The position numbers were made by a program, and so were the translations under genes. The notes under the pieces were generated by a model that was given only the letters and a program-made list of their open reading frames with translations, was not told the origin of the DNA and ran no database searches. DNA of 64,000 nt from positions 24,265 to 88,264 of the forward strand of contig JAUXSB010000009.1 in assembly GCA_030681595.1 (NCBI GenBank), in the 5' to 3' direction. Positions 6,336 to 57,440 of this stretch are shown piece by piece. Source of the stretch: Candidatus Omnitrophota bacterium (GTDB lineage Bacteria > Omnitrophota > Gorgyraeia > Ghiorseimicrobiales > Ghiorseimicrobiaceae). The number at the start of each line of letters is the position of its first letter. Within the stretch, counting starts at the first letter, position 1.

Positions 6336-6411
6336 TTTAAGTTATAGGTAAGAAGTTATGAGTTATGATTTATAACTTGTAACTCTTAAGCGACTGAAAG
6401 GAGCGAAGCAA

Positions 6412-9771: not shown

Positions 9772-9851
9772 AATTCCTCTTAGCGATAACAAAAGAATAT
9801 ATTAAACCCCGCCAGAGTAATTTTTTGGCGGGGTAAATATCAAGCAGACTC

Positions 9852-11021
9852 TTGATGAATAAGCTTGCTCAGCGTGTCAAGGATATAGAACCGTCTTCGA
9901 CACTTGCTATAACTGCCCGCGCAAAAAAAATGCGCCAAGAAGGTTTGGATGTAATTAGTTTTGCCGCAGGTGAGCCTGATTTTGACACTCCTCAATATAT
10001 CAAAGACGCCGCTATAAAGGCATTAGCGGAAGGTTTTACTAAGTATACCCCCTCAAGCGGTATCCCCGAATTAAAAAAGGCCATCCAGAAAAAATTTAAG
10101 CTTGATAATAGCCTAGATTATGAACCAGAGCAGATTATCGTTTCTTGCGGGGCAAAACACTCACTTTTTAATATAATTCAAGTTTTGGTAGATAAAAATG
10201 CTGAGGTGCTTATCCCATCGCCTTATTGGGTGAGTTATCTGGAAATGGTTAAGTTTGCCCAAGGCAAAGCTGTAATTCTTAAGACAGACAGTAGAAACTC
10301 TTTTAAGCTTAACGCCGAAATTTTAAGTAAAAACATCACAAAGAAAACCAAGCTGCTTATTTTAAATTCTCCTTCTAATCCTGCAGGCTGTGTATACAAG
10401 AGAGAAGAACTTGATGACATCGCGCAAATATGCGTAAAAAATAAGCTATGGGTGTTAAGCGACGAGATATATGAGAAACTTATTTATGAAAATAATAAGC
10501 ATATTTCTATCGCCACTTTAAATAATGACATATATAAGCTTACCTTTGTAGTAAATGGCGTCTCTAAGGCTTACTCAATGACCGGCTGGCGCATAGGATA
10601 TCTTGCCGGAGATAAAGAGGCAGTAGAGGCAACAGCGAGGCTGCAGGATCACTCTACTTCTAATCCTTGTTCCATATCGCAAAAAGCGGCTTTGGCAGCG
10701 TTGTCTTCCGACAATGGCTTTATTGATAAGATGCGCCTTGAATTTGAGGAAAGGCGTAACCTGATGCTTTCCGAGTTAGATAAAATAGGGTTGGATTATA
10801 TTAAACCAGAAGGTGCGTTTTACGTTTTTCTGGATATTTCAAAGGCTAAGATTGGTTCATGGGAGTTCTGCGATAAATTTTTGGCGGAAAAATATGTTGC
10901 CGTAATCCCGGGTGCGGCATTTGGAAATGATAATTATGTACGTTTTAGTTTCGCGGCCAGTATGCCGGAAATAAAAAAAGGTTTAGAGCGGCTAAGAGAA
11001 TTCATAAGCTCGCCCCGTTAG
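9852..11021 (+). CDS. PLP-dependent aminotransferase class I (aspartate or aromatic aminotransferase-like)
   Basis: 389 aa with the PLP-lysine context SKAYSMTGWRIGY. Typical AspAT fold-type I signature. Confidence 0.85.
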   Translation: MMNKLAQRVKDIEPSSTLAITARAKKMRQEGLDVISFAAGEPDFDTPQYIKDAAIKALAEGFTKYTPSSGIPELKKAIQKKFKLDNSLDYEPEQIIVSCGAKHSLFNIIQVLVDKNAEVLIPSPYWVSYLEMVKFAQGKAVILKTDSRNSFKLNAEILSKNITKKTKLLILNSPSNPAGCVYKREELDDIAQICVKNKLWVLSDEIYEKLIYENNKHISIATLNNDIYKLTFVVNGVSKAYSMTGWRIGYLAGDKEAVEATARLQDHSTSNPCSISQKAALAALSSDNGFIDKMRLEFEERRNLMLSELDKIGLDYIKPEGAFYVFLDISKAKIGSWEFCDKFLAEKYVAVIPGAAFGNDNYVRFSFAASMPEIKKGLERLREFISSPR

Positions 11022-11182
11022 AGACCAGTCCGACTTCGGCCTGCCCGAATGAAGTCAGGCGGGTCTGGCGGGTAGGCCATCATAGATGGCCGTCTATTGC
11101 GGGATAGGTAATAATAAACGAATGGCTTCCATAAATAAGCAGTAGTTTCAAGCAGCATAAAACGTATCTCTAACGGGGTAAA

Positions 11183-12439
11183 ATGGGTAAAACTATTGTT
11201 GAAAAAATTTTAAGCGCCCACTCCGGAAAAGATCTGAAGCCGGGAGATTTTGCTATATGTGATGTAGATTTTTGCTTTGGGCAAGATGGCACTTCCGCGA
11301 TTATCATTGACCGGATTAAAGCGCTGGGCGTAAAAAATCTCGCCAATAAAGATAAATTTTGCATGGTCATAGACCATAGTTCTCCCAGCCCGAATATGGG
11401 GGTTTCCGCTGTCCATAGTAAGATGCGTGCGTTTGCAAAAGAGTTCGGTTTAAAAGTCTATGATATCGGCTGTGGAGTTTGTCATGAGGTGGTCCCGGCA
11501 GAAGGCAATGTCCTGCCCGGGGATTTGGTTTTGGGGGCAGATTCGCATACCTGCACCTATGGCGCAATCGGCGCATTCTCTACCGGCGTCGGATCAACCG
11601 ATTTGGCAGTTGCTTTAGCCAGCGGTAAAAACTGGTTCCGTGTCCCTGAAACGATAAAGATAGAAGTAAATGGAAAATTGCCTAAAGGCGTTTATGCCAA
11701 AGATTTGATTCTTTACATCATCGGCGACTTGGGAGCAAATGGCGCTACTTATAGGGCGGTTGAGTTTTATGGAAGCGCAATAGATAATTTATCTCTTGAC
11801 GGGCGTTTTACAATGAGTAATATGGTAGTAGAAATGGGCGCAAAATGCGCCTTCTTTCCGGTGGATGAAAAAGTTCTAAGCTGGGTAAAAGAAAAGAGCA
11901 TAAAGAGAAAACCCATAATTTATAAAGCAGATTCTAGCGCCGAATATTGCCTGGTTAAGGAATATGATGCCGGAGACATTGCGCCACAGGTGGCAAGGCC
12001 GCATACTGTTGATAATGTAGTTGCGGTAAAAAAGATAGAAGGCCTTAAAATTAACGAAGCATTTTTAGGCACCTGCACCAACGGAAGGCTTGATGATTTG
12101 AAGGTGGCTTGGCGAATTTTAAAGGGAAGAAAAGTTAATCCGAAGATTAAATTCATTATCGCGCCAGCTTCACGCAGGATTTATTTGGAGGCATTAAAAT
12201 TAGGTTTTATAGAAACTTTTATAAAGGCGGAAGCGGTAGTGATTACTCCGGGATGCGGGCCGTGCGTGGGCACCCATATGGGTATTCCCGCAGATAAAGA
12301 AGTAGTGCTTTCAACGGCAAACAGGAATTTTAAGGGCAGGATGGGAAATCCTGAGTCGGAAATCTATCTTGCTTCTCCGGCTACTGTTTGCGCTTCAGCT
12401 GTTAGCGGCAAAATAACCGACCCACGGAAATATTTATAG
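11183..12439 (+). CDS. leuC: 3-isopropylmalate / citramalate dehydratase large subunit (aconitase family, archaeal-type LeuC)
   Basis: 418 aa. Has the aconitase cluster-ligand context (…GTCTNGR…, …PGCGPCVG…). Confidence 0.88.
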   Translation: MGKTIVEKILSAHSGKDLKPGDFAICDVDFCFGQDGTSAIIIDRIKALGVKNLANKDKFCMVIDHSSPSPNMGVSAVHSKMRAFAKEFGLKVYDIGCGVCHEVVPAEGNVLPGDLVLGADSHTCTYGAIGAFSTGVGSTDLAVALASGKNWFRVPETIKIEVNGKLPKGVYAKDLILYIIGDLGANGATYRAVEFYGSAIDNLSLDGRFTMSNMVVEMGAKCAFFPVDEKVLSWVKEKSIKRKPIIYKADSSAEYCLVKEYDAGDIAPQVARPHTVDNVVAVKKIEGLKINEAFLGTCTNGRLDDLKVAWRILKGRKVNPKIKFIIAPASRRIYLEALKLGFIETFIKAEAVVITPGCGPCVGTHMGIPADKEVVLSTANRNFKGRMGNPESEIYLASPATVCASAVSGKITDPRKYL

Positions 12440-16364: not shown

Positions 16365-17036
16365 ATGGTTAAAACGATAGTTTTTTTGCCGGGATGGAGT
16401 TTTAAGGCGCAAATTTGGGCAGGGCAAGAGAAATATTTCTCGGAATTAGGCTTTAGGACCATCCTGTGTGAATTAGAAGAGTTAGACGGCTACATTAAAA
16501 GTACCCGGCTAGAAGAAACCGTATTTATTGCCTGGTCGCTTGGTTGGTTTAGGTTATTGGATGTTTTGAAAAGCAGCTTTTCTTTGCCTTGCGCAATAGT
16601 AGGGGTGTCTGCCGCCATAAAATTTAAAAAATCGTTATTACGCCTCATGATACAGGAATTTAAAAAAGACCATAGGAAGGCATTATCGGATTTTGACAGT
16701 TGGTTATTTAGCCCTGAAGAAAAAGATTCGTCCGGTTTCGGTATTTTAAACGGGCTAATAGCGCAATCAAGAATAAATGATAAAGAAAGATTACTCAGGG
16801 ATTTATTGTTTCTTAAGGCACTAGACTTAGAAGGTTTCTTAACTACTTTTCGCCTGCCTGTTTTTTTAGTGTCAGGTAATAAAGATATAATTTGCCCTAT
16901 CGATGAAGCGATGCATTTAAAGCCGGTTTTACCCGATAGTCAGATAAAGGTAATGGAAGCAGGTCATATTCCTTTTTTGACAAGTAGCGCAGAATTTAAC
17001 CATTGTATCGGCTCATACCTACTGAGCCTCCGATAA
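16365..17036 (+). CDS. alpha/beta-hydrolase, pimeloyl-ACP methyl ester esterase (BioH/BioG-like)
   Basis: 223 aa, nucleophile elbow AWSLG. Lies between bioF and bioC. Confidence 0.7.
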   Translation: MVKTIVFLPGWSFKAQIWAGQEKYFSELGFRTILCELEELDGYIKSTRLEETVFIAWSLGWFRLLDVLKSSFSLPCAIVGVSAAIKFKKSLLRLMIQEFKKDHRKALSDFDSWLFSPEEKDSSGFGILNGLIAQSRINDKERLLRDLLFLKALDLEGFLTTFRLPVFLVSGNKDIICPIDEAMHLKPVLPDSQIKVMEAGHIPFLTSSAEFNHCIGSYLLSLR

Positions 17037-17340
17037 ATAATAGGCACATTGGCTGAGACGATTTGGTTTTGGCTATATTGAAAGCCAAACCACTGCTTTC
17101 TAGCTTTGTTGGAGCGAGACAAGGAACGAGGACGCCGGCGTAGTCGCAGTACTACGCCAAAGACGAGTGACGCAGGCGCAGCCCAAAAGCGGCCAGCCCC
17201 TTCGGGGAAGGCGCATCTTTGGCCTGCTACCGCGTTGCTCCTCCTCGAAGTAGTGCATAGACTACATCTTCGTCGTCGCGCCTTGCATCAGGCTCAAATC
17301 TTCGCCTTCCGATGTACCCATTATTTATCGGAGGCTCAGT
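17021..17340. mobile_element. MITE-like 320-bp insert bounded by perfect 20-bp terminal inverted repeats, between bioH and bioC
   Basis: 17021-17040 (actgagcctccgataaataa) is the exact reverse complement of 17321-17340. The interior is GC-rich, unlike the flanks, and contains a cccc-ttcg-gggg hairpin. The left TIR supplies the bioH stop codon. The interior shares an identical 25-mer with the hisS 3' end (50128-50152). The ORF 17106..17342 inside it is probably spurious. Confidence 0.5.
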
Positions 17341-17353
17341 GAAAGGTTTAGCG

Positions 17354-18130
17354 ATGATTTCTAAAGAATTAATCCGGAGGAATTTTTCAAATGTAGCGGC
17401 CAATTATGACGAGCACGCTGTTATACAAAAAAAATCCGGCTGCGAGCTCGTCGGACAATTACGAAAAGATAAAAATAATTATGGAGCGATTTTAGATATA
17501 GGCACGGGGACAGGCGGTTTATTGAGGGATTTGTCTTTGGTGTGCAGGCCCGCGTTAATATGCGGTCTGGACATTTCTTCCAATATGCTTATAAAAGCCA
17601 GGGCGTCTGAAAAGAGTAGCTTCTTTATACAGGCCGATGCAGAAAACATTCCTTTTAAAAAAAACACATTTGATTTAGTCGTTTCTAATTTGGCTTATCA
17701 GTGGCTTATGGATTTAGATAGCGCTTTTATTCAACTAGCAGGGATTTTAAAAGAAAGAGGGATGTTTTATTTTACTTCTTTTGGCCGCCGGACGCTTTCC
17801 GAACTAAGGGAATGTCTCAAGTCGGTAAAAGAAGCATCCGATTACAACATTTTTCCCGCAAAGGAAGCAATGCATTCCAAATTAAAAAATGCTGGGTTTG
17901 CGAATATTAAAATTATCTCGAAAATAGAGAAAGAGTTTTTTGTTGATTCTTTCAGCCTTATCCGCTGGTTAAAATATTCTGGGGCAAACAGGATAGGCGT
18001 TCGGTTTAATGGGCTTGAGGCGCGGGGTGTACTTAAAGAAATGGATAAATTATATTTAGAGAAATACCCGGCTGGCGGCGGCGTATTTGCCTCGTTTGAA
18101 AGATATATTGTTAAAGCAGAAAAAAGATGA
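17354..18130 (+). CDS. bioC: malonyl-ACP O-methyltransferase
   Basis: SAM-methyltransferase motif ILDIGTGTG. The ORF track starts at 17312 inside the right TIR. The Met at 17354 (MISKELIRRNF) aligns with typical BioC N-termini. Confidence 0.82.
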   Translation: MISKELIRRNFSNVAANYDEHAVIQKKSGCELVGQLRKDKNNYGAILDIGTGTGGLLRDLSLVCRPALICGLDISSNMLIKARASEKSSFFIQADAENIPFKKNTFDLVVSNLAYQWLMDLDSAFIQLAGILKERGMFYFTSFGRRTLSELRECLKSVKEASDYNIFPAKEAMHSKLKNAGFANIKIISKIEKEFFVDSFSLIRWLKYSGANRIGVRFNGLEARGVLKEMDKLYLEKYPAGGGVFASFERYIVKAEKR

Positions 18131-18200
18131 GCCCCGCCCTTCCTGAAATTTGATAAAGTAGGAAGGCATGGGCCAGAAAGAGAAAGGAAGAGCGGGGTGA
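18131..18200 (+). promoter_or_regulatory. repeated leader element copy 1: ccccgcccttcct … gaaaggaagagcggggtGa, embedding the SD and GTG start of bioD
   Basis: Near-identical ends to the element at 27995-28046. The cttcct tract can pair with either of two downstream aggaag tracts. The bioD GTG lies inside the 3' arm. Confidence 0.5.
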
Positions 18201-27339: not shown

Positions 27340-27994
27340 TAAGAGTAACCAGAAACCAGTAACCAGTAACCAGAATTTAAAAAATAAGAGAATATTGATT
27401 ACGGCAGGCCCCACCTGGGTTCCTATAGATAGTGTTAGGGTAATTAGTAATATTGCTACAGGAGAGACCGGAATTATTTTAGCCCAAAAGTTACGCAAGG
27501 CAGGCTGTAAAGTTACGTTGTTACTTGGACCTGTGGGTAATTATCAGAATAAGAAAATACGGCTTTTGCGTTTTAGGTTTTTTGAAGAATTAAAGGCTAT
27601 ACTTAAGAGAGAATTATGCCGCGGTAGATACGATATTGTAATTCATTCAGCCGCGGTTTCTGACTATAAGCCGAAGAAATCTTTTAGGCGAAAGCTTGTA
27701 TCCAGCATTAAAAATCTTAAGATAGATTTAATCCCGGCAGAAAAAATCATCGATTTAATTAAGCGGACTGACAATTCTTTATTTTTGGCGGGTTTTAAAT
27801 TTGAGCCTGATATAAATAAGGAAAAACTTTTGGCGCAGGCAAGAGAATTAATGAAGCGTAGCGCTTGTGATTTGGTGGTAGCTAATACGCTTAGGGGCGG
27901 ACGTTATTCGGCATATTTAGTCAGAAGCGATAAAGTTCAAGGCCCGTTATATACTAAAAAAAAATTAGCAGAACAGTTGATAAAAAATCTATGA
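27329..27994 (+). CDS. coaB: phosphopantothenate-cysteine ligase (CoaB-only). Start uncertain.
   Basis: ITAGPTWVPIDSVRVISNIATGETG motif. The first ~25 codons contain the aaccagt heptamer tract and may be 5' leader. An alternative TTG start is near 27403. Confidence 0.75.
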   Translation: MDINKSNQKPVTSNQNLKNKRILITAGPTWVPIDSVRVISNIATGETGIILAQKLRKAGCKVTLLLGPVGNYQNKKIRLLRFRFFEELKAILKRELCRGRYDIVIHSAAVSDYKPKKSFRRKLVSSIKNLKIDLIPAEKIIDLIKRTDNSLFLAGFKFEPDINKEKLLAQARELMKRSACDLVVANTLRGGRYSAYLVRSDKVQGPLYTKKKLAEQLIKNL

Positions 27995-28046
27995 ACCCCG
28001 CCCTTCCTAAAAAGAGCGGGGGATCCGAGAAAGGAAGAGCGGGGTG
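27995..28046 (+). promoter_or_regulatory. repeated leader element copy 2, embedding the SD and GTG start of apgM
   Basis: accccgcccttcct…agagcggggg…gaaaggaagagcggggtGa. The block agagcgggg occurs twice, so ccccgccc has two alternative pairing partners. Confidence 0.5.
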
Positions 28047-32132: not shown

Positions 32133-34940
32133 ATGAACGAAATTCCCTCCCGATATAACCCCAAAGAAGTTGAAGAGAAATGGTATAAGTTTTGGGAAGA
32201 AAATAAGCTATTTTCCGCAAAGCCCACTCCTAATAAGAAACCTTTCTGTATAGTCATACCTCCGCCTAATGTGACCGGAATTTTACACATGGGGCATGCC
32301 TTGAATAATTTCATACAGGATATTTTAACCCGTTACCAGCGAATGAAAGGTAGTGAGGCGCTCTGGATACCTGGGACAGACCATGCCGGGATTGCCACGC
32401 AGAACGTGGTGGAGAAGAAATTGGCTAAAGAAGGTAAAAAACGGCAGGACTTAGGGCGCGATGAATTTTTAAAGGAAGTCTGGAAATGGCGCGAGGAATA
32501 CGGTTCAACTATTATCAAGCAGCTTAAGAAATTAGGCGCATCCTGTGATTGGGAGCGTACTCGTTTTACTATGGATGAGGGCTACAGTGATGCAGTGCTG
32601 GAAGTATTTATTCATTTATATAATAAAGGCCTCATTTATCGGGGAAAGCGTATTATTAATTGGTGCCCGCGTTGTTCAACCGCGCTTAGCGATGAAGAAG
32701 CTCCTTATAAGGAATTGGAAGGGCAGCTTTATTATATACGGTATCCAATTAAAGTCACCAGTCATACCCTTGCGGGCACAGGCCAGTCATACCCTTGCGG
32801 GCACAGGCCAGTCACCAGAAAAAAACAGAAAACTATCAATTACGTAGTAGTGGCGACGACGCGGCCGGAGACGATGTTGGGCGATACGGCGGTAGCGGTT
32901 AATCCCAAAGACAAGCGCTATAAAGACCTGATAGGAAAGACTGTTATTCTTCCTTTGGTTGAGCGGGAAATTAAAATTATCGCTGATAATTTTGTTGATC
33001 CGAAATTCGGTACAGGCGCGGTTAAGGTTACCCCTGCCCATGATCCTAACGATTACCAGATGGGGCTGCGGCATAATCTAGAGTTTATTAATATTATGCA
33101 GGTCGATGGTGTGTTGAATTCTAATGCCGGCGAATACGATGGTATGGATAGGTTTGAGGCACGCCAGGCAATAGTTAACGATTTAAAAGAGCGTAAGCTG
33201 CTGGAGAAAATAGAACCGCATATGCATTCCGTAGGGCATTGCTATCGTTGTTCAACCGTAATTGAGCCATATTTGTCCAACCAGTGGTTTGTGAAAATGA
33301 AGCCTTTATCCAAACTCGCGTTGGAAGCGGTGAAAAAAGGCGAAATTAAATTTTATCCTAAGCGTTGGACAAAGGTTTATTTAAACTGGATGGAAAATAT
33401 TCAGGATTGGTGTATCTCGCGGCAGATTTGGTGGGGGCATAGGATGCCTGTTTATTATTGTAAAAATTGCTACAAGCCTCAAGCTTCAGGCTCCAAGCTT
33501 CAAACTGAAAAAGAAAAGCCTGCAGCAGATAAGGGTATCTTTGTTTCAAAGAATAAGCCGGAGAAATGCCCGGATTGCGGCTCAAGCGATATTTATCAAG
33601 ACGAAGATGTGTTGGATACTTGGTTTTCTTCCTGGCTCTGGCCGTTTGCGACGTTTGGCTGGCCGTTTACAAGCTACAAGCCTCAAGCTGCAAGCGACAA
33701 GCAAAAAAGCCTGCAGCAGGACGAACTTAATTACTTCTACCCTACTTCGGTATTAGTGACTGCTCAGGAAATAATCTTTTTCTGGGTGGCGCGCATGATT
33801 ATGGCGGGCTTTGAATTTATGGGTAAAAAGCCGTTTTCCGATGTTTATATCCATGGTACGGTGCGCGACGATACCGGTAAAAAGATGTCTAAGTCTCTGG
33901 GTAATATTATTGACCCGCTTGAAATTATAAATGAGTTTGGATCAGACGCGCTTCGTTTCAGTATTATTTCCCTGACCAGCGTAGGCCAGGATGTCTTTTT
34001 ATCTAGGAATAAATTTGAATACGGCAGGAATTTCGCCAATAAAGTCTGGAATGCCTCGCGCTATACCATAATGAACCTTAAGCCAGAAGAAATAAATGTG
34101 GATTTGTGCGCCTATTCTAAAGGTATATCCGGGCTTGCCGAGAAGTGGATTTTAAGCCGGTTTTACAGCGCTTTAGATAGAATAGAGAAGGCGCTTAAGC
34201 AGTATAAAATTAACGAGGCGGCTAAGGTAATGTATGAATTTTTCTGGCATAATTTCTGTGATTGGTACCTGGAATTTTCTAAGTTAACATTGGGGAGGCG
34301 CCAAACGCAGGTTGTGCTTTATAAGGTATTGGAAAAATCCCTGCGTGTTATGCATCCGTTCTTGCCGCATCTGACCGAAGAAATATGGCATAACCTGCCG
34401 GGTACAAAATCGTCCATAATGACGGAAAGCTGGCCGCATTTGCAGAAACAGTTTATCTCAAAAACAACGGATAAACAGATGCAGGTTTTGATAGATTTAA
34501 TTTCCCTGATAAGGAATATCCGTTCTGAATGGCACATATTGGAACACGCTGAAATAGAATGTATTATTAAGACTACAGATAAGGCTTCAAAAAAACTCAT
34601 ACAGGAAAACGATATTTATCTAAAAAAATTAGCAAAGCTAGGCCAGATAAAAATCGTAGAGAAAGCCGAAGATGTTTCCATGTGCGCATCCGGCGTGGCA
34701 GGAAAACTCGATTTTTATATACCACTTGAAAAACTTATTGATTTGACAAAAGAAAAAGAGCGCCTGTCTAAACAAATACAGTCATTTGAGGCGCAGTTTA
34801 AGGCTTTGAGAGAAAGATTAAAGAATAAGGAATTTCTTAAAAAAGCGCCCAACGAAGTGGTGGAAAAAGAAAAAATCAGGTTAGAAGAGTTATCGAAATT
34901 AATCAAGCGTATTGGCGATAATTTAAAAGTATTGGGTTAA
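32133..34940 (+). CDS. valS: valine--tRNA ligase, carrying in-frame repeat insertions
   Basis: 935 aa. HIGH (PPNVTGILHMGHA), KMSKS, editing domain, and a C-terminal coiled coil. Confidence 0.93.
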   Translation: MNEIPSRYNPKEVEEKWYKFWEENKLFSAKPTPNKKPFCIVIPPPNVTGILHMGHALNNFIQDILTRYQRMKGSEALWIPGTDHAGIATQNVVEKKLAKEGKKRQDLGRDEFLKEVWKWREEYGSTIIKQLKKLGASCDWERTRFTMDEGYSDAVLEVFIHLYNKGLIYRGKRIINWCPRCSTALSDEEAPYKELEGQLYYIRYPIKVTSHTLAGTGQSYPCGHRPVTRKKQKTINYVVVATTRPETMLGDTAVAVNPKDKRYKDLIGKTVILPLVEREIKIIADNFVDPKFGTGAVKVTPAHDPNDYQMGLRHNLEFINIMQVDGVLNSNAGEYDGMDRFEARQAIVNDLKERKLLEKIEPHMHSVGHCYRCSTVIEPYLSNQWFVKMKPLSKLALEAVKKGEIKFYPKRWTKVYLNWMENIQDWCISRQIWWGHRMPVYYCKNCYKPQASGSKLQTEKEKPAADKGIFVSKNKPEKCPDCGSSDIYQDEDVLDTWFSSWLWPFATFGWPFTSYKPQAASDKQKSLQQDELNYFYPTSVLVTAQEIIFFWVARMIMAGFEFMGKKPFSDVYIHGTVRDDTGKKMSKSLGNIIDPLEIINEFGSDALRFSIISLTSVGQDVFLSRNKFEYGRNFANKVWNASRYTIMNLKPEEINVDLCAYSKGISGLAEKWILSRFYSALDRIEKALKQYKINEAAKVMYEFFWHNFCDWYLEFSKLTLGRRQTQVVLYKVLEKSLRVMHPFLPHLTEEIWHNLPGTKSSIMTESWPHLQKQFISKTTDKQMQVLIDLISLIRNIRSEWHILEHAEIECIIKTTDKASKKLIQENDIYLKKLAKLGQIKIVEKAEDVSMCASGVAGKLDFYIPLEKLIDLTKEKERLSKQIQSFEAQFKALRERLKNKEFLKKAPNEVVEKEKIRLEELSKLIKRIGDNLKVLG
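32755..32818 (+). repeat. in-frame repeat insertion A: 25-bp unit tcatacccttgcgggcacaggccag in tandem x2, flanked by tcaccag direct repeats
   Basis: Read directly. The two copies are translated in different frames (SHTLAGTGQ, then SYPCGHRPV). Net insert 57 bp. The same unit recurs in nadC. Confidence 0.85.
33468..33533 (+). repeat. in-frame repeat insertion B copy 1 (heptamer-based: five NNCAAGC units plus aaaagcctgcagcag)
   Basis: ctacaagcctcaagct…aagcctgcagcag recurs 200 bp downstream. It sits between the two Cys pairs of the valS zinc knuckle. Confidence 0.7.
33668..33725 (+). repeat. in-frame repeat insertion B copy 2
   Basis: acaagc tacaagc ctcaagc tgcaagc gacaagc aaaaaagcctgcagcagg. 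The 3' block is read in a different frame from copy 1. Confidence 0.7.
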
Positions 34941-34943
34941 ATT

Positions 34944-35843
34944 ATGCAGAAAAAAGAAATTATCAATATCGTAAAAAATGCCCTTAGGGAAGATGCCGCG
35001 GATAGAGATATTACTACGCAGGCGCTTATTCCTCTGGATTTAAGGGCAGCGGCAAGGATTATTACCAAAGAAAATGGGGTAGTTTGCGGATTAAGCATTG
35101 CGGAACTCGCCTTTAAGCTGTTGGATAAAAATATCAAGTTTAAGGCAAAAGTCAAAGATGGTGCGGTAATAAAAAATGGTAGTTGTTTGGCAGAGATTTA
35201 CGGTAGGGCACGGCCAATTTTATCTGCAGAACGTACCGCACTCAATTTCTTAGGGAATCTTTGTGGAATAGCCGCGTTTACCCGTCAATTCGTAGAAAAA
35301 GTTAAACCGTATAAAACTAAGATTCTGGATACCAGAAAAACTACGCCGAATTTAAGAATACTGGAAAAATACGCGGTGCGTTGCGGCGGCGGGTTCAACT
35401 ACCGTTTTGATTTAAGCGAACAAATATTGGTTAAAGATAACCACATAAGAATCACAAATGACAAATTACAAATGGCAAATTTAAAATATGTCGTTGAGGC
35501 CGTACGAAAAAACGTGAAGGGTAAAAAAATTGAGATTGAGGTAGATAATTTAAGGCAGTTCAAAGAAGTAATTGCTGTGGCGCCCGATATTATCATGCTG
35601 GATAATTTTAATCTGTCTGATATCAAAAAAGCGGTAAAGATTAAAAATCGGTCACCAGTCATACCCTTGCGGGCACAGGCCAGCCACCGGTCGCCGGTAA
35701 AACTAGAAGCATCTGGTGGAATAACTTTAAGAAATATTAAGAAAGTTGCTGCAACCGGCGTAGATTTTATCTCTATCGGCGCGCTCACCCATTCAGTTAA
35801 ATCCTTGGATTTATCTTTAGAAATCACTAAAAAATCTGCGTAA
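34944..35843 (+). CDS. nadC: nicotinate-nucleotide pyrophosphorylase (carboxylating), carrying an in-frame repeat insertion
   Basis: 299 aa QPRTase. The usual C-terminal …LEASGGI motif is interrupted by the insert. Confidence 0.88.
   Translation: MQKKEIINIVKNALREDAADRDITTQALIPLDLRAAARIITKENGVVCGLSIAELAFKLLDKNIKFKAKVKDGAVIKNGSCLAEIYGRARPILSAERTALNFLGNLCGIAAFTRQFVEKVKPYKTKILDTRKTTPNLRILEKYAVRCGGGFNYRFDLSEQILVKDNHIRITNDKLQMANLKYVVEAVRKNVKGKKIEIEVDNLRQFKEVIAVAPDIIMLDNFNLSDIKKAVKIKNRSPVIPLRAQASHRSPVKLEASGGITLRNIKKVAATGVDFISIGALTHSVKSLDLSLEITKKSA
35651..35690 (+). repeat. in-frame insertion of repeat A (single 25-bp unit, flanks tcaccag / ccaccgg) in nadC
   Basis: Identical 25-mer to the valS copies, translated in the third possible frame (VIPLRAQAS). 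Net ~39 bp. Confidence 0.85.
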
Positions 35844-37838: not shown

Positions 37839-37950
37839 AAGATCTTATTCGTCGCACTGGAATTTTCTGCCGTCTGCTACGGTTTACGACTCGTTCATTT
37901 TACGGAATTCCCTGCGGTCAGTTCCGTAATTCACTCGTCGTAACTCTTTG

Positions 37951-38316
37951 CAGACCCGCCAGAACGAAGTCGGGCTGGCATTTGCCAGTGAATTCCTAGT
38001 GTGCTTACGAATAAATCTTCCACTCGCCTTTTGTTTTGGTTGAAGAGGAATTATAATGAACCCGTTGCCCACCTCGGAGGTGGGCAACGGGTTAGATAAG
38101 CGAAATTCAGCTTATACGAAGTGCGGATTTTGTGATATTATATAGGCAAAGTTGAGATATTACGTAAGCAGAAGCTACAACTAAACGAAGAAAATAGTGT
38201 CGTTTCTGCGTAACACGTTTATTTAAAATAAGTTACACGATAAATCGATATTTCGCTAACACGTCGCTGAAAACCGGTTCCACCGCGGGCCAGCCCGACA
38301 AGCATTCTGGCGGGGG
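37951..38316. repeat. composite GC-rich element bounded by imperfect ~28-bp inverted repeats, with nested hairpins
   Basis: 37951-37979 (cagacccgccagaacgaagtcgggctggc) is the near reverse complement of 38289-38316. The interior has a perfect 17-bp-arm palindrome at 38059-38093. The terminal motif is shared with 11021-11100. Confidence 0.5.
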
Positions 38317-38385
38317 TGGAATAGGTTTGGTTCGTAATTAAACCGTTATCAACCTACGCGGTTGATATGGTTGGTAGGGTATAAT

Positions 38386-38589
38386 ATGGATACGTCATTA
38401 TTATTTGCAGGTGTAATTTTTGGTTCAATTGGTACGGCGTATTTTGTCTATGGCAAAAAACAGCAAAACTGGATTGCCTTTGTTTGTGGTATAATATTAT
38501 GCGTAACCCCTTATTTTATAGCAAACATATATTTACTAGTGGCAACAGGTATTGTATTGGGAGTTTTGCCGTTTTTAATAAAATTATAA
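38386..38589 (+). CDS. hypothetical small membrane protein (two predicted TM helices)
   Basis: 67-75 aa and hydrophobic. No recognisable family. The start could be 38362 or 38386. Confidence 0.4.
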   Translation: MDTSLLFAGVIFGSIGTAYFVYGKKQQNWIAFVCGIILCVTPYFIANIYLLVATGIVLGVLPFLIKL

Positions 38590-43275: not shown

Positions 43276-44817
43276 GTGCCTAAAAACACTATACTAATTT
43301 TGGATTTTGGTTCGCAATACACACAGTTGATTGCGCGCCGTGTGCGCGAGAATAACGTTTTTAGTTTAATCGTGCCTTATAATATTAAGGCCGCTGAAAT
43401 TAAGAAGCTCAGCCCCCGGGGCTTAATTCTTTCCGGGGGCCCTGCAAGCGTATATGCCAAGGTTTCTCCCCAGCCGGATAAAAATATATATAAATTAGGT
43501 ATTCCCATTTTAGGTATTTGTTATGGTTTGCAGGTGAGCGCGCAGATTTTAGGCGGCAGGGTTAAATTTAGCAAACAGCGTGAATACGGCCGGGTTGAGT
43601 TTTTTGCGGATGACCATAAAGACCTTTTTAATGGCGTATCCGGTAACTTTACCTGCTGGATGAGTCATGGAGATTATTTAACCGGGCTTCCCAAAGGTTT
43701 TAGCTGTATTGGGCACACTTTAAATACTCCGCTAGCTGCAATTGCCGATAGGAAGCGGCGTATATTCGGGCTGCAGTTCCATCCGGAAGTAGCACATACA
43801 CAAAAGGGCGATAAGATTTTAGCTAACTTTTTGTTTAAGGTATGCGGCTGTTCTTCGGATTGGGTGATGGAATCATTTATAAAAGAAGCGATAGATAAAA
43901 TCAGAAAGGCTGTCGGAAAAAAGAAGGTTATTTGTGGCCTATCCGGAGGGGTGGATTCTTCGGTTGTTGCTTTACTTATCCATAAGGCTATCGGTAACCA
44001 ACTGCGATGTATTTTTATTGATAACGGCCTATTGCGTAAAGACGAGCCGGAGCAGGTAAGAAAAACTTTTAAGGAGCATTTTAAGATAAATTTGGATTAT
44101 GTTGTGGCAGGCGCGCGGTTTTTAAAGAAACTCAAGGGCGTAACTGACCCGGAAGAAAAAAGAAAAATTATCGGCAATGAATTCGTTAAGGTTTTTGAAG
44201 AAGAGGCGGTTAAATTTAAAGGCGCGGAGTTTTTAGCGCAGGGTACGCTTTATCCGGATGTGATTGAGTCTGTCCCGGCGTTCGGGGGGCCAACCGCAAA
44301 AATTAAGACACATCACAATGTCGGCGGGCTTCCTTTAAATATGAAACTTAAACTCATTGAGCCGTTGCGCGAATTATTCAAGGATGAAGTGCGTTTAATT
44401 GGTAAACAACTAGGCCTGCCCGTCAACATTATAAGCCGTCAGCCTTTTCCGGGTCCGGGGCTTGCGATACGCATTATCGGCGAAGTTACCGAAGAACGCC
44501 TCGCGATTGTAAGGGAAGCTGATGAGCGGCTCCTTGAAGAGATAAAAAAATCAGCGATTTATCCGGATATCTGGCAGTCGTTCGCCGTGCTTTTACCGGT
44601 AAAAAGCGTAGGCGTGATGGGCGATGAAAGGACTTATGAGAATGTTGTCGCTGTAAGATGCGTTTCCAGTGTTGACGGCATGACTGCCGACTGGGTAAAA
44701 GTGCCTTATGAAATATTAGAGAAGATTTCCAACAAGATTATTAACGAAGTCAAAGGTATTAATCGCGTTACTTACGATATAAGCTCTAAACCTCCGGCAA
44801 CTATTGAGTGGGAATAA
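43276..44817 (+). CDS. guaA: GMP synthase (glutamine-hydrolysing)
   Basis: 513 aa. GATase-1 (catalytic Cys in GICYG) plus ATP-PPase SGGVDSSV. Confidence 0.93.
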
Positions 44818-44822
44818 TGATG

Positions 44823-44903
44823 AAGTTATAAGTGGTGAGTTATGAGTTATAAATTTAAAAAAGTAACTTAAACTTGTAACTTATAATTTATAACTCATAA
44901 CTT
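44823..44903. repeat. ~80-bp AT-rich near-perfect palindrome (gagttatgagttataaatt … aatttataactcataactt)
   Basis: 19-bp arms with nested inner arms. The same agttatgagttat / ataacttgtaact motif occurs at 6353-6387. Confidence 0.8.
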
Positions 44904-44909
44904 CCAATA

Positions 44910-48879: not shown

Positions 48880-50181
48880 ATGTCATTTGTTTTTCGGGCT
48901 GTGCGCGGAACGAAAGATATTTTGCCTGATGAGGCAGAATATTTGCGCCATATTGAAGTTAAGGCGCGGGAGATTTCTTCTCTTTATGGATATAGAGAGG
49001 TTATTACTCCTGTGATAGAAAACCGCGATTTATTCGTCCGTTCCCTGGGAAAGGACACGGAGGTTATCGGAAAGCAGATGTTTATCATCGAGCGGGGAGA
49101 TGATATTATCGCCCTGCGTCCCGAAGCAACTGCCGGAGTAATCCGCGCTTATTTGGAAAATAATTTAAATAGCCGCAACTTGTTAGCCAAGTTTTATTAT
49201 TTCGGGCCGATGTTCAGGGCGGAACGTCCGCAAAAAGGGCGCCTGCGGCAGTTTCACCATCTGGGGGTTGAAGCAGTAGGTTCATCCAGCCCCTTGTTAG
49301 ATGTGGAAATTATTTCTTTGGCAGAGGTAATCTTAAAAAATATCGGCATAAGCGGTTTTAAAATAAAAATCAATACTTTGGGGTGTGTCGAAGATAAAAA
49401 AGCATTTGCTGAAAAGCTGCGCGTTATTTTAGGGGGGAAAATTTCTGATTTTTGCCAGGATTGCCGGGAAAGGTTTGATCGTAATGTCTTTCGGCTCCTT
49501 GACTGTAAAAACAGCTCCTGTAAAAATATTATCTTAGGCCTTAATATTAAGCGTACGGATTATCTTTGCGGGGAATGTTTAGAACATTTTGATACGGTTT
49601 TAGCTGGATTAAAGAATATAGGCGTAAACTATGAAGAGAGCGCGCATTTAGTGCGGGGCTTAGATTATTATACGCGCACGGTTTTTGAGATTACGCATTC
49701 AGAATTAGGCGCTCAGGATGCCGTAGGTGCCGGAGGGAGATACGATAATTTGGTGGAGGAGTTGGGCGGAGAGCCGACGGCTGCCATAGGTTTTGCTTTT
49801 GGAGTCGAGAGGCTGTTGTTAGTATCAAGTGCCAAGTGCCAAGTGCCAAGTAAAGATTTAGTTTTTTTGATTGCTTTAGGCAAGGGGGCGGAGGCAGCGA
49901 GCGTTAAGCTGTTGTATAGCCTGCGCCAAAACGGGATAAAGGCAGATACGCTTTATGAAGAGAAATCTCTTAAAGGGGCAATGCGTAGAGCTAATGATTT
50001 AGGCGCAAAATATGTTTTGATTTTAGGCGAAAACGAGTTAAAGAAAAACGTGGTAGTTTTTAAGGATATGGCTTCGGGGGAGCAAAGAGAGATAAAGACA
50101 GAAGAAGTAATAGCCGAACTTATGGCTTTGGCTATATTGAAAGCCAAACCATTGCCTTATCGGCTTAAAGGTCAAATATAG
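48880..50181 (+). CDS. hisS: histidine--tRNA ligase
   Basis: 433 aa class-II aaRS with a HisRS anticodon-binding C-terminus. Contains a (caagtgc)x3 tract (49827-49853) and a repeat-derived 3' end. Confidence 0.92.
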   Translation: MSFVFRAVRGTKDILPDEAEYLRHIEVKAREISSLYGYREVITPVIENRDLFVRSLGKDTEVIGKQMFIIERGDDIIALRPEATAGVIRAYLENNLNSRNLLAKFYYFGPMFRAERPQKGRLRQFHHLGVEAVGSSSPLLDVEIISLAEVILKNIGISGFKIKINTLGCVEDKKAFAEKLRVILGGKISDFCQDCRERFDRNVFRLLDCKNSSCKNIILGLNIKRTDYLCGECLEHFDTVLAGLKNIGVNYEESAHLVRGLDYYTRTVFEITHSELGAQDAVGAGGRYDNLVEELGGEPTAAIGFAFGVERLLLVSSAKCQVPSKDLVFLIALGKGAEAASVKLLYSLRQNGIKADTLYEEKSLKGAMRRANDLGAKYVLILGENELKKNVVVFKDMASGEQREIKTEEVIAELMALAILKAKPLPYRLKGQI

Positions 50182-57060: not shown

Positions 57061-57143
57061 GATAGGGATATAGGTTGAGGGTGGGGTAGGGCTAAAATTG
57101 CCAAGCTTGCCAATTTTTTGCTCAGGTGACGATTTTTAACGCA

Positions 57144-57273
57144 AAAAGCTCTTTTATAATTTTGGCGGCTGCGAAACTCGCTCGTCGGGGCTTACGCCCG
57201 CGGGACGAGCTCAGACATTCTCGCCGCCCAAATGTTTCCACGTTTGGGTTCCCAAAATTGTAAAAGCTCTTTT
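57144..57273. repeat. ~130-bp nested imperfect palindrome (GC-rich core gctcgtcgggg…cccgcgggacgagc, arms tttggcggc/gccgcccaaa, AT-rich outer arms)
   Basis: Read directly. Lies within a 380-bp non-coding gap before polX. Confidence 0.65.
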
Positions 57274-57440
57274 GCTAAATCGTCAATTCGCAAAAATTGT
57301 CAGTCTTGTCAATTCCTCGATGATTAAGATAAGGTGCAAATTCGCTCCGCCAACACAACAATATTCTCCATATGCAGGATTACAAGCCTTGCCATTCATA
57401 TTCATTCATTAATGGCTTTTGGCTGGTTTATTGATTAATT

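Follow-up and report, generated by a model that had tools for sequence, protein, structure and literature searches.

A probable miniature mobile hairpin at gene junctions of a Candidatus Omnitrophota chromosome

We analysed a 64-kb stretch of DNA from contig JAUXSB010000009.1 of a Candidatus Omnitrophota bacterium (64,000 nucleotides, hereafter the window, with positions counted from its first letter), in which a short GC-rich hairpin recurs between genes. The window is about 42% GC, has strongly positive GC skew and carries all of its long open reading frames (ORFs) on the plus strand; described as part of an AT-rich chromosome in an initial annotation made from its letters alone, it is only moderately AT-rich. 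The GC-rich, palindrome-like repeat that this annotation placed at gene junctions is present. Its unit, which we name the module, occurs four times at three intergenic sites in the 64 kb, between aspC and leuC and downstream of uvrB, and no window copy lies within a gene. We interpret these repeats as probable copies of a miniature, non-autonomous mobile DNA hairpin. The copies and the host hairpins beside or around them are listed here, with module types as defined below and scores from a covariance model (R1) built from 35 instances that include the window's own sequences; L numbers denote individual loci from other assemblies.

11025 to 11072, plus strand: composite insertion of 48 nt, an A-type module (CCAGTCCGAC TTCGG ... 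TCTGGCGGG) with a second module in its loop; match to the search pattern.
11040 to 11063, plus strand: the nested 24-nt T-type module, CCTGCCCGAATGAAGTCAGGCGGG, found in a degenerate scan; R1 score 27.7 bits, E = 7.6e-5.
37955 to 37978, minus strand: copy B, a 24-nt A-type module whose minus strand reads CCAGCCCGACTTCGTTCTGGCGGG; pattern match; R1 score 36.8 bits.
38290 to 38314, plus strand: copy C, a 25-nt A-type module, CCAGCCCGACAAGCATTCTGGCGGG; pattern match; R1 score 37.4 bits.
11073 to 11100, plus strand: host stem-loop TAGGCCATCATAGATGGCCGTCTATTGC, not part of the element, kept in relatives L123 and L126, both of which lack the insert.
38278 to 38321 (arms 38278 to 38284 and 38315 to 38321), plus strand: host hairpin that is the target of copy C, not part of the element, defined by its fold and by comparison with L127.

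The initial annotation had noted end motifs shared by three stretches, and these hold up on closer analysis: CCAGNCCGAC and TCTGGCGGG recur in the same order, and the pattern CCAGNCCGAC-N(4-30)-TCTGGCGGG, with 18 specified bases, matches the window three times and none of 100 dinucleotide-preserving shuffles. This test is not independent because the pattern was derived from these same copies; independent support comes from the recurrence of the same 24–27-nt unit in public genomes and metagenomes. R1 returned exactly three significant window matches (38290, 37955 and 11040), each with E ≤ 8e-5 and the next best at E = 0.18, and this search of the window revealed no further diverged copies. The composite begins 3 nt past the aspC stop codon, and 11040–11063 is a complete unit between both halves of the 11025–11072 match. 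Folding predicts that copy B is enclosed by an 8-bp outer stem (AATTCACT/AGTGAATT). Copy C, flanked by GCGGG and GGTGGAA, occupies the loop of a host hairpin (TTCCACC-GCGGG^GGTGGAA) and makes an inverted pair with copy B, 311 nt away. A candidate fifth copy at 9808–9832 was rejected: it is module-like, but an ordinary hairpin conserved in relatives. The Logan short-read assembly of the same organism breaks within the element, at 11044.

These results redraw the proposed family. Its unit had been taken to span about 50–80 nt; the actual unit is the 24–27-nt module, and the copy at 11025 is two of these, nested. The segments at 1125–1259 and 57144–57273, proposed as further members, share no significant sequence with the module by intergenic BLASTN or by model search, and in an all-versus-all BLASTN of the window's intergenic regions the 11022–11182 gap had no significant similarity to 1125–1259 or 57061–57440. 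Both are very stable structured spacers (1125–1259 and 57140–57275; −47 and −56 kcal/mol, z = −5.0 and −6.0). The former fills a gap of 135 nt that measures 52 nt in L123, and the latter is a long near-perfect palindrome with the look of a miniature inverted-repeat transposable element (MITE).

The window's LeuC and UvrB match proteins of a Candidatus Omnitrophota metagenome-assembled genome with 100% identity. Syntenic loci from relatives allow several of these sites to be compared with and without a module.

L123 and L127 (one ENA contig, ERZ21828306): LeuC 94% and UvrB 88% identity to the window.
L126 (Logan SRR8797411): LeuC 79% identity to the window.
L124 and L125 (Omnitrophica CG11): LeuC 77% identity to the window.
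L128 (ENA ERZ1292634): UvrB 88% identity to the window.
L129 (ENA and NCBI, ERZ1742237): UvrB 78% identity to the window.

At the aspC–leuC junction L123 and L126 read ...CCGTTAGAGA|TAGGCCATC... (TTAGAGA|TAGGCC), with exactly 11025–11072 absent. There is no target-site duplication at this junction, where the window has GAGA|CCAG...CGGG|TAGG and the empty sites of L123 and L126 have GAGA|TAGG. The adjoining ggccatcatagatggcc hairpin (11075–11091, ggccatc), which the initial annotation had included in the repeat, is host sequence because it is conserved in L123 and L126, both without the insert. In L127 the hairpin equivalent to that around copy C is uninterrupted (TAACACC-GCGT-AGGTGTTA, then T7), an intact terminator. 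Copy B lies within about 430 nt downstream of uvrB, in a stretch missing from L127, and has an orthologous copy with two substitutions in L128; a model search of the relatives' loci (about 120 kb) found no module besides this orthologue. As read from these alignments, 11025–11072 is a recent, exact 48-base insertion of two nested modules, and at the compared sites modules were gained or lost exactly, with ends set by the module and without target duplication.

The region that receives copies B and C has features of its own. Immediately past uvrB comes a non-coding segment of about 430 nt (37840–38270), partly common to L128 and missing from L127; the uvrB of L127 continues into the terminator hairpin and encodes different C-terminal residues. 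Paired TTACGGAA/TTCCGTAA hairpins and a promoter-like TTGTGATATTATAT lie in this segment. A 35-nt palindrome within it (38059–38093, AACCCGTTGCCCACCTCGGAGGTGGGCAACGGGTT), perfect save for its central base, is absent from the homologous L128 stretch and scores as a minus-strand terminator-like site. Further on, 38386–38589 encodes a hydrophobic 67-amino-acid ORF (MDTSLLFAGVIFGSIGTAYFVYGKK...), below the 80-amino-acid listing threshold, whose nucleotide sequence is highly conserved in L127; because of this ORF the actual spacer downstream of uvrB is shorter than 827 nt.

The alignment of 35 instances gives the module consensus CCWGCCCGAC-NNN-GTC-R-TTCWGGCGGG, with a length of 24–29 nt (mostly 27; the window copies have 24–25 nt). 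Three types are set apart by the letter at position 3 and by its partner, which is seven letters in from the 3′ end.

A type: 5′ arm CCAG..., 3′ arm ...CTGGCGGG.
T type: 5′ arm CCTG..., 3′ arm ...CAGGCGGG.
C type: 5′ arm CCCG..., 3′ arm ...CGGGCGGG.

Positions 3 and 21 are complementary in 125 of 127 modules of the metagenome sample, for which the search pattern admitted any W/W pair, and the helix 1-4:20-23 is paired in 100% of cells, with A-U/U-A exchange. An initial reading of the module as a hairpin with imperfect 9-bp arms was dropped in favour of this 4-bp CCWG/CWGG helix, as the 9-bp register has no covariation and its variable letters fall in mismatches. The tetranucleotides are therefore ordered X-Y...X′-Y′ (CCWG-CCCG...CWGG-CGGG), and we call the arms ‘crossed’. 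In the 4-bp helix fold CCCGA and the 3′ CGGG are invariant yet unpaired, and across the alignment the invariant unpaired CCCGA, TT and CGGG stand against a variable loop. Position 11 tracks position 3, a coupling for which a second possible helix, 5-11:21-27, would account; since the types number just three (A, T and C), common descent could also explain it.

The same unit is widespread outside the window, where we count about 170 copies, mostly intergenic. A genome scan returned 118 loci, with match lengths clustered at 26–29 nt (mostly 27); matches of 24–27 nt form a coherent set, and long-gap matches are chance hits inside GC-rich coding DNA. The coherent matches lie in Candidatus Scalindua (several contigs) and Brocadiaceae, in Saccharibacteria, Nomurabacteria, Yanofskybacteria and Zambryskibacteria, and in several Bacteroidota (including the isolate Maribacter sp. 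4G9) and Ignavibacteria; Omnitrophica GWA2_41_15 carries a 24-mer identical to copy B. The spread of modules crosses phyla: near-identical modules occur beside unrelated genes in at least five phyla, and loop variants do likewise, as with the AAGGTCA loop found in Yanofskybacteria, Ferruginibacter and Bacteroidales. A tighter pattern matched at least 120 metagenome loci; among the matches listed, all carry the module, the median contig GC is 0.40 and the T type, to which the nested 11040–11063 module belongs and which is common in metagenomes, outnumbers the A type. Viral contigs gave only three matches in 2.9 million, and a phage origin was rejected on that basis.

These data refute the reading that short GC-rich words merely coincide in GC-rich hairpins of no common origin. 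The shared words are indeed short (10 and 9 nt), most long-gap matches in GC-rich genomes are chance hits in coding DNA, and 9808–9832 illustrates how an ordinary conserved hairpin can resemble a module. Such compositional similarity is nonetheless at odds with three matches against none in 100 shuffles, with element boundaries that coincide exactly with an indel, and with hundreds of 27-mers that are near-identical, loop included. The initial annotation had allowed that similarity might end with a few short motifs and extend to no additional copies; this is not the case, because many further copies exist elsewhere.

Modules are found inside one another and, to a limited extent, preferentially where structured DNA is unpaired. 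Besides the window composite, nested copies are present in L116, L004, L049, L085 and L120, and flanking stems of at least 5 bp enclose 17% of modules compared with 6% in permuted controls (maximum 10%). Proximity to tRNA genes is above expectation, with ten of 174 modules no more than 300 nt from one against about 2–3 expected. In three loci a full-length tRNA paralog is split in its D-loop, its T-arm or both, where one or two GC hairpin modules lie.

L213, 420 to 520: module-split tRNA paralog.
L237, 1940 to 2060: module-split tRNA paralog, holding two modules.
L193, 255 to 390: module-split tRNA paralog.

Each interrupted paralog adjoins an intact tRNA with the same anticodon. Deletion of the module restores a full tRNA in L213 (junction position 21) and L237 (position 55), and ARAGORN overlooks the interrupted paralogs unless the module is removed. 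Modules also lie inside ORFs: a 27-nt module is in frame in a variable loop of MnmA (L114, mnmA) and three are in frame within a 914-amino-acid ORF (L070), both of which may be in-frame insertions. The 5′ flanks vary (GAGA, CGGG, AATG and others), with only G at −1 enriched (61% of A-type and 44% of T-type modules). A sense-strand bias, strong in 14 cases, was not significant in the larger set, in which sense:antisense counts relative to neighbouring genes were 11:6 for A-type and 22:14 for T-type modules.

This context bears on the proposal that selection maintains the module as a functional signal acting in cis in RNA or DNA, for example to stabilize mRNA 3′ ends, as a hairpin for RNA processing or protein binding, or as part of a terminator; its spread would then reflect a conserved host factor and not mobility. 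Copy A, the composite, starts 3 nt from the aspC stop codon, and the hairpin that holds copy C is terminator-like; the combination of invariant unpaired CCCGA, TT and CGGG with a variable loop resembles protein-binding sites; and in a first small sample most A-type copies lay on the sense strand. However, the same junctions are empty in relatives with 94% and 79% LeuC identity, copies are nested, lie within coding regions and interrupt tRNA paralogs, and the strand bias dissolved in the larger sample (11:6 and 22:14). Likewise, no T-run follows the modules, the terminator scan was negative and no Rfam family matched. We consider a selected signal improbable as an explanation. For a mobile hairpin, by contrast, the window copies are most simply neutral passengers that need no host function, with the inferred side effect of adding a stable GC stem-loop to the 3′ end of aspC and to the hairpins downstream of uvrB.

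A mobile, non-autonomous module would require an agent supplied in trans. When the ORFs surrounding about 150 module loci were clustered, the sole recurrent family comprised small GIY-YIG proteins (PF01541, about 80–95 amino acids); no Y1-transposase-like family recurred beside modules at these loci. In L174, L213, L239 and L240 the GIY-YIG ORF has a tRNA fragment with a module on one side and an intact tRNA on the other, and both loci of two GIY-YIG homologues chosen without reference to modules have the same arrangement. In the sense of the tRNA the order is a tRNA 5′ fragment, the module after nucleotide 9 or 21, a few tRNA nucleotides and the GIY-YIG ORF, whose last codons and TAG stop form the first 10 nt (U8-A9-G10) of the intact tRNA. 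Thus L251 (Nomurabacteria) reads GCCGGAATA|CCCGCCAGA...TCGGGCTGG|GCTCAGTCGGTAGA followed by the ORF, whose end, ..CCG GAA TAG, is the start of tRNA-Thr. Two Magasanikbacteria loci (L261 and L262) carry tandem arrays of tRNA-Val nucleotides 1–21, a 36-nt module and nucleotides 22–30, with a unit number that varies between samples. Other sampled GIY-YIG ORFs stand alone, without modules. The units of GIY-YIG ORF, tRNA fragment and module lie as follows.

L251: 1430 to 1810.
L261: 1340 to 2290.
L262: tandem array as in L261.
L239: 90 to 460.
L240: 500 to 950.
L213: 420 to 990.
L174: 760 to 2140.

Searches of the accessible literature brought up no account of this arrangement, which is weak evidence of novelty. 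The arrangement raises the possibility, which we put forward only tentatively, that modules are the dispersed non-autonomous part of an undescribed mobile system, centred on a minimal stand-alone GIY-YIG nuclease that parasitizes tRNA genes. Such a structure-specific enzyme would nick the loops of folded DNA (tRNA D- and T-loops, terminator loops and the loops of modules themselves), and a hairpin of about 25 nt would then be inserted or copied at the nicked loop. If true, this would be hairpin transposition that needs neither a Y1 nor a DDE transposase. The GIY-YIG nuclease at tRNA genes is the only candidate enzyme with contextual support, and the arrangement makes the mover of a hairpin that has neither a REP tag nor the gene of a REP-associated tyrosine transposase (RAYT) experimentally testable. 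A Y1/HUH (RAYT-like) enzyme is the conventional, textbook candidate for an alternative mover, here without contextual support.

That alternative has a specific form, in which the module is an ordinary repetitive extragenic palindromic (REP) sequence of a REP/RAYT system (REPtron), mobilized by a cognate Y1 HUH transposase whose gene lies at another genomic site. Size, imperfect hairpin, extragenic position and occasional in-frame insertion in genes all match REPs (PMC3733652, PMC6006769), the hairpins of class 3 Y1 transposases, with a CnGA foot, provide a precedent for conservation across phyla, and copies B and C, separated by 311 nt, are arranged as an inverted pair. Yet modules have no GTAG/GTGG or CGTC tag, their words are missing from the published REP table, their ‘crossed’ arm order (X-Y...X′-Y′) is unlike REP stems, most copies are singletons and no Y1-transposase-like family recurs beside them at about 150 loci. 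An ordinary REPtron therefore seems unlikely to us, on these sequence comparisons.

We favour a miniature mobile hairpin whose movement, in trans, would most plausibly take place as a folded single strand of DNA. It would be moved by a nuclease or transposase, specific for structure or sequence, that reads the 4-bp CCWG/CWGG helix together with the invariant unpaired CCCGA and CGGG ends, and integration would favour transiently single-stranded DNA such as hairpin loops. Several observations weigh against this interpretation. Empty-site comparison covered only two insertion sites, in relatives 79–94% identical at the protein level, and precise loss in those relatives may be an alternative to insertion. 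The preference for hairpin loops holds for a minority of copies, and the flanks contain no fixed target motif, at odds with the targeting of IS200/IS605-type (PATE-like) end hairpins, which insert 3′ of a fixed tetra- or pentanucleotide. Cross-phylum near-identity could be the product of strong selection on a functional site. The GIY-YIG ORF is absent from the window and from the relatives' loci, and no transposase or nuclease is tied to the window copies; copy counts cover the window and individual loci.

If correct, the module would rank among the smallest mobile DNA units seen, a sequence of about 25 nt that inserts cleanly and nests in itself. Its near-verbatim sharing among Omnitrophota, anammox Planctomycetota, Patescibacteria, Bacteroidota and Ignavibacteriota suggests that the mover has spread horizontally. 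Such insertions matter for annotation and assembly, as contigs break at elements, tRNA finders miss paralogs and essential genes gain loop residues, and for the evolution of 3′ ends and terminators in streamlined genomes, where insertions land at gene ends and in terminator hairpins.

The window holds other repeats besides the module. A second, unrelated GC-rich element (CCCCGCCCTTCCT...AGGAAGAGCGGGG) fills a stop-to-start gap twice (18128–18197 and 27992–28045); the first of these is a precise 70-nt insertion relative to L123, with TGAG on both sides, and brings an AGGAAG/GGGG stretch in front of the GTG start that follows. At 17021–17340 an insertion of about 320 nt, with 32-nt inverted repeats (91% complementary), an interior of 55% GC and a MITE-like look, separates two genes that overlap in L123 and holds a 36-nt segment repeated at 50123–50158. 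A 36-nt GC-rich repeat (GTCACCAGTCATACCCTTGCGGGCACAGGCCAGTCA) lies within two essential genes, valS (32754–32814) and nadC (35651–35686); in NadC it is an 8-residue in-frame insertion missing in L127, L128 and L129, and in ValS it falls in a loop that is variable across all relatives. AT-rich repeats of GTTATGAGTTAT and ATAACT motifs occupy the spacers upstream of rpsM (6339–6384) and dnaE (44809–44904) and may be shared operator- or promoter-like elements. Extension past one end of the window reached only the ribosomal operon.

Searches of existing catalogues returned no counterpart of the module. Rfam 15 gave no match for the whole window at the gathering threshold, only noise for 10950–11250 at E ≤ 10 and nothing at the modules of 18 module-bearing loci, and a literature search on module sequence words returned primers only. 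A terminator scan found no intrinsic terminator at any module; modules are followed by TAGGCC, GGTGGAA or TCTGCAA, with no T-run. MITEs, defined by terminal inverted repeats, target-site duplication, a size of 50–500 bp and derivation from insertion sequences, differ from the module, which makes no duplication and has 24–27 nt. Rickettsia palindromic elements are selfish palindromes found in frame in protein genes and in RNA genes, as modules may be, but are 100–150 nt long, confined to one genus and unrelated in sequence, and no window copy is genic. The mobile GC clusters of yeast and fungal mitochondrial DNA are likewise GC-rich, palindromic units of about 30–40 nt scattered through lower-GC DNA, intergenic or occasionally coding, and polymorphic for presence and absence; like the module they have no known mobilizing enzyme, although they belong to a different compartment of life and are unrelated to it in sequence.

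Free-standing GIY-YIG homing endonuclease genes occur in tRNA gene regions, for example phage T4 SegB (PMC2330249), and the likeness here is a small GIY-YIG ORF among tRNA genes and fragments where modules are densest. By contrast with SegB-type genes, the ORFs described here are minimal Slx1/YhbQ-like domains of about 80–93 amino acids without a DNA-binding extension, end inside a tRNA gene and are preceded by module-bearing tRNA fragments. The nearest precedent for the module itself is the set of hairpins that flank class 3 TnpA-Y1 genes, which have about 26 nt and a CnGA foot and are nearly one sequence in Legionella, Solibacter and Planctomyces (Quentin et al. 2018, PMC6006769). Both are GC-rich, similar in size, conserved in their internal mismatches, distributed across phyla and able to reach high copy number, and both have CnGA (CCGA, CAGA or CTGA in module arms) and GTCA-type loops. 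The two nevertheless give no convincing alignment (CCGAGCCGCGACCGTAAGGGAGCGG against CCAGCCCGACAAAGTCATTCTGGCGGG), the CnGA of the module lies inside an arm and not at the foot, and no class 3 gene was seen near modules.

REP and REPIN elements with RAYT (TnpA-REP) transposases, the GTAG- and CGTC-tagged superfamilies among them, have in common with the module a short (20–40 nt), imperfect, GC-rich hairpin, mostly extragenic but sometimes in frame in genes, multi-copy, without target duplication and with proposed movement as a single-stranded hairpin. In behaviour, then, the REP/MITE-like family of the initial annotation stands on its REP side, through precise presence or absence and further copies; the REP tag and the MITE hallmarks are lacking. 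The flank profiles contain no GTAG/GTGG or CGTC foot tag, the module words do not fit the GTAG/CGTC family descriptions and are missing from the published REP catalogue table, no RAYT gene is adjacent and most copies are singletons. Unlike REPs, the module combines a 4-bp covarying helix with ‘crossed’ arms (CCWG-CCCG...CWGG-CGGG), has a sequence common to several phyla, and nests both in itself and in tRNA loops. Set against these known systems, the module is a real REP-like and probably mobile hairpin, and a distinct variant of that class.

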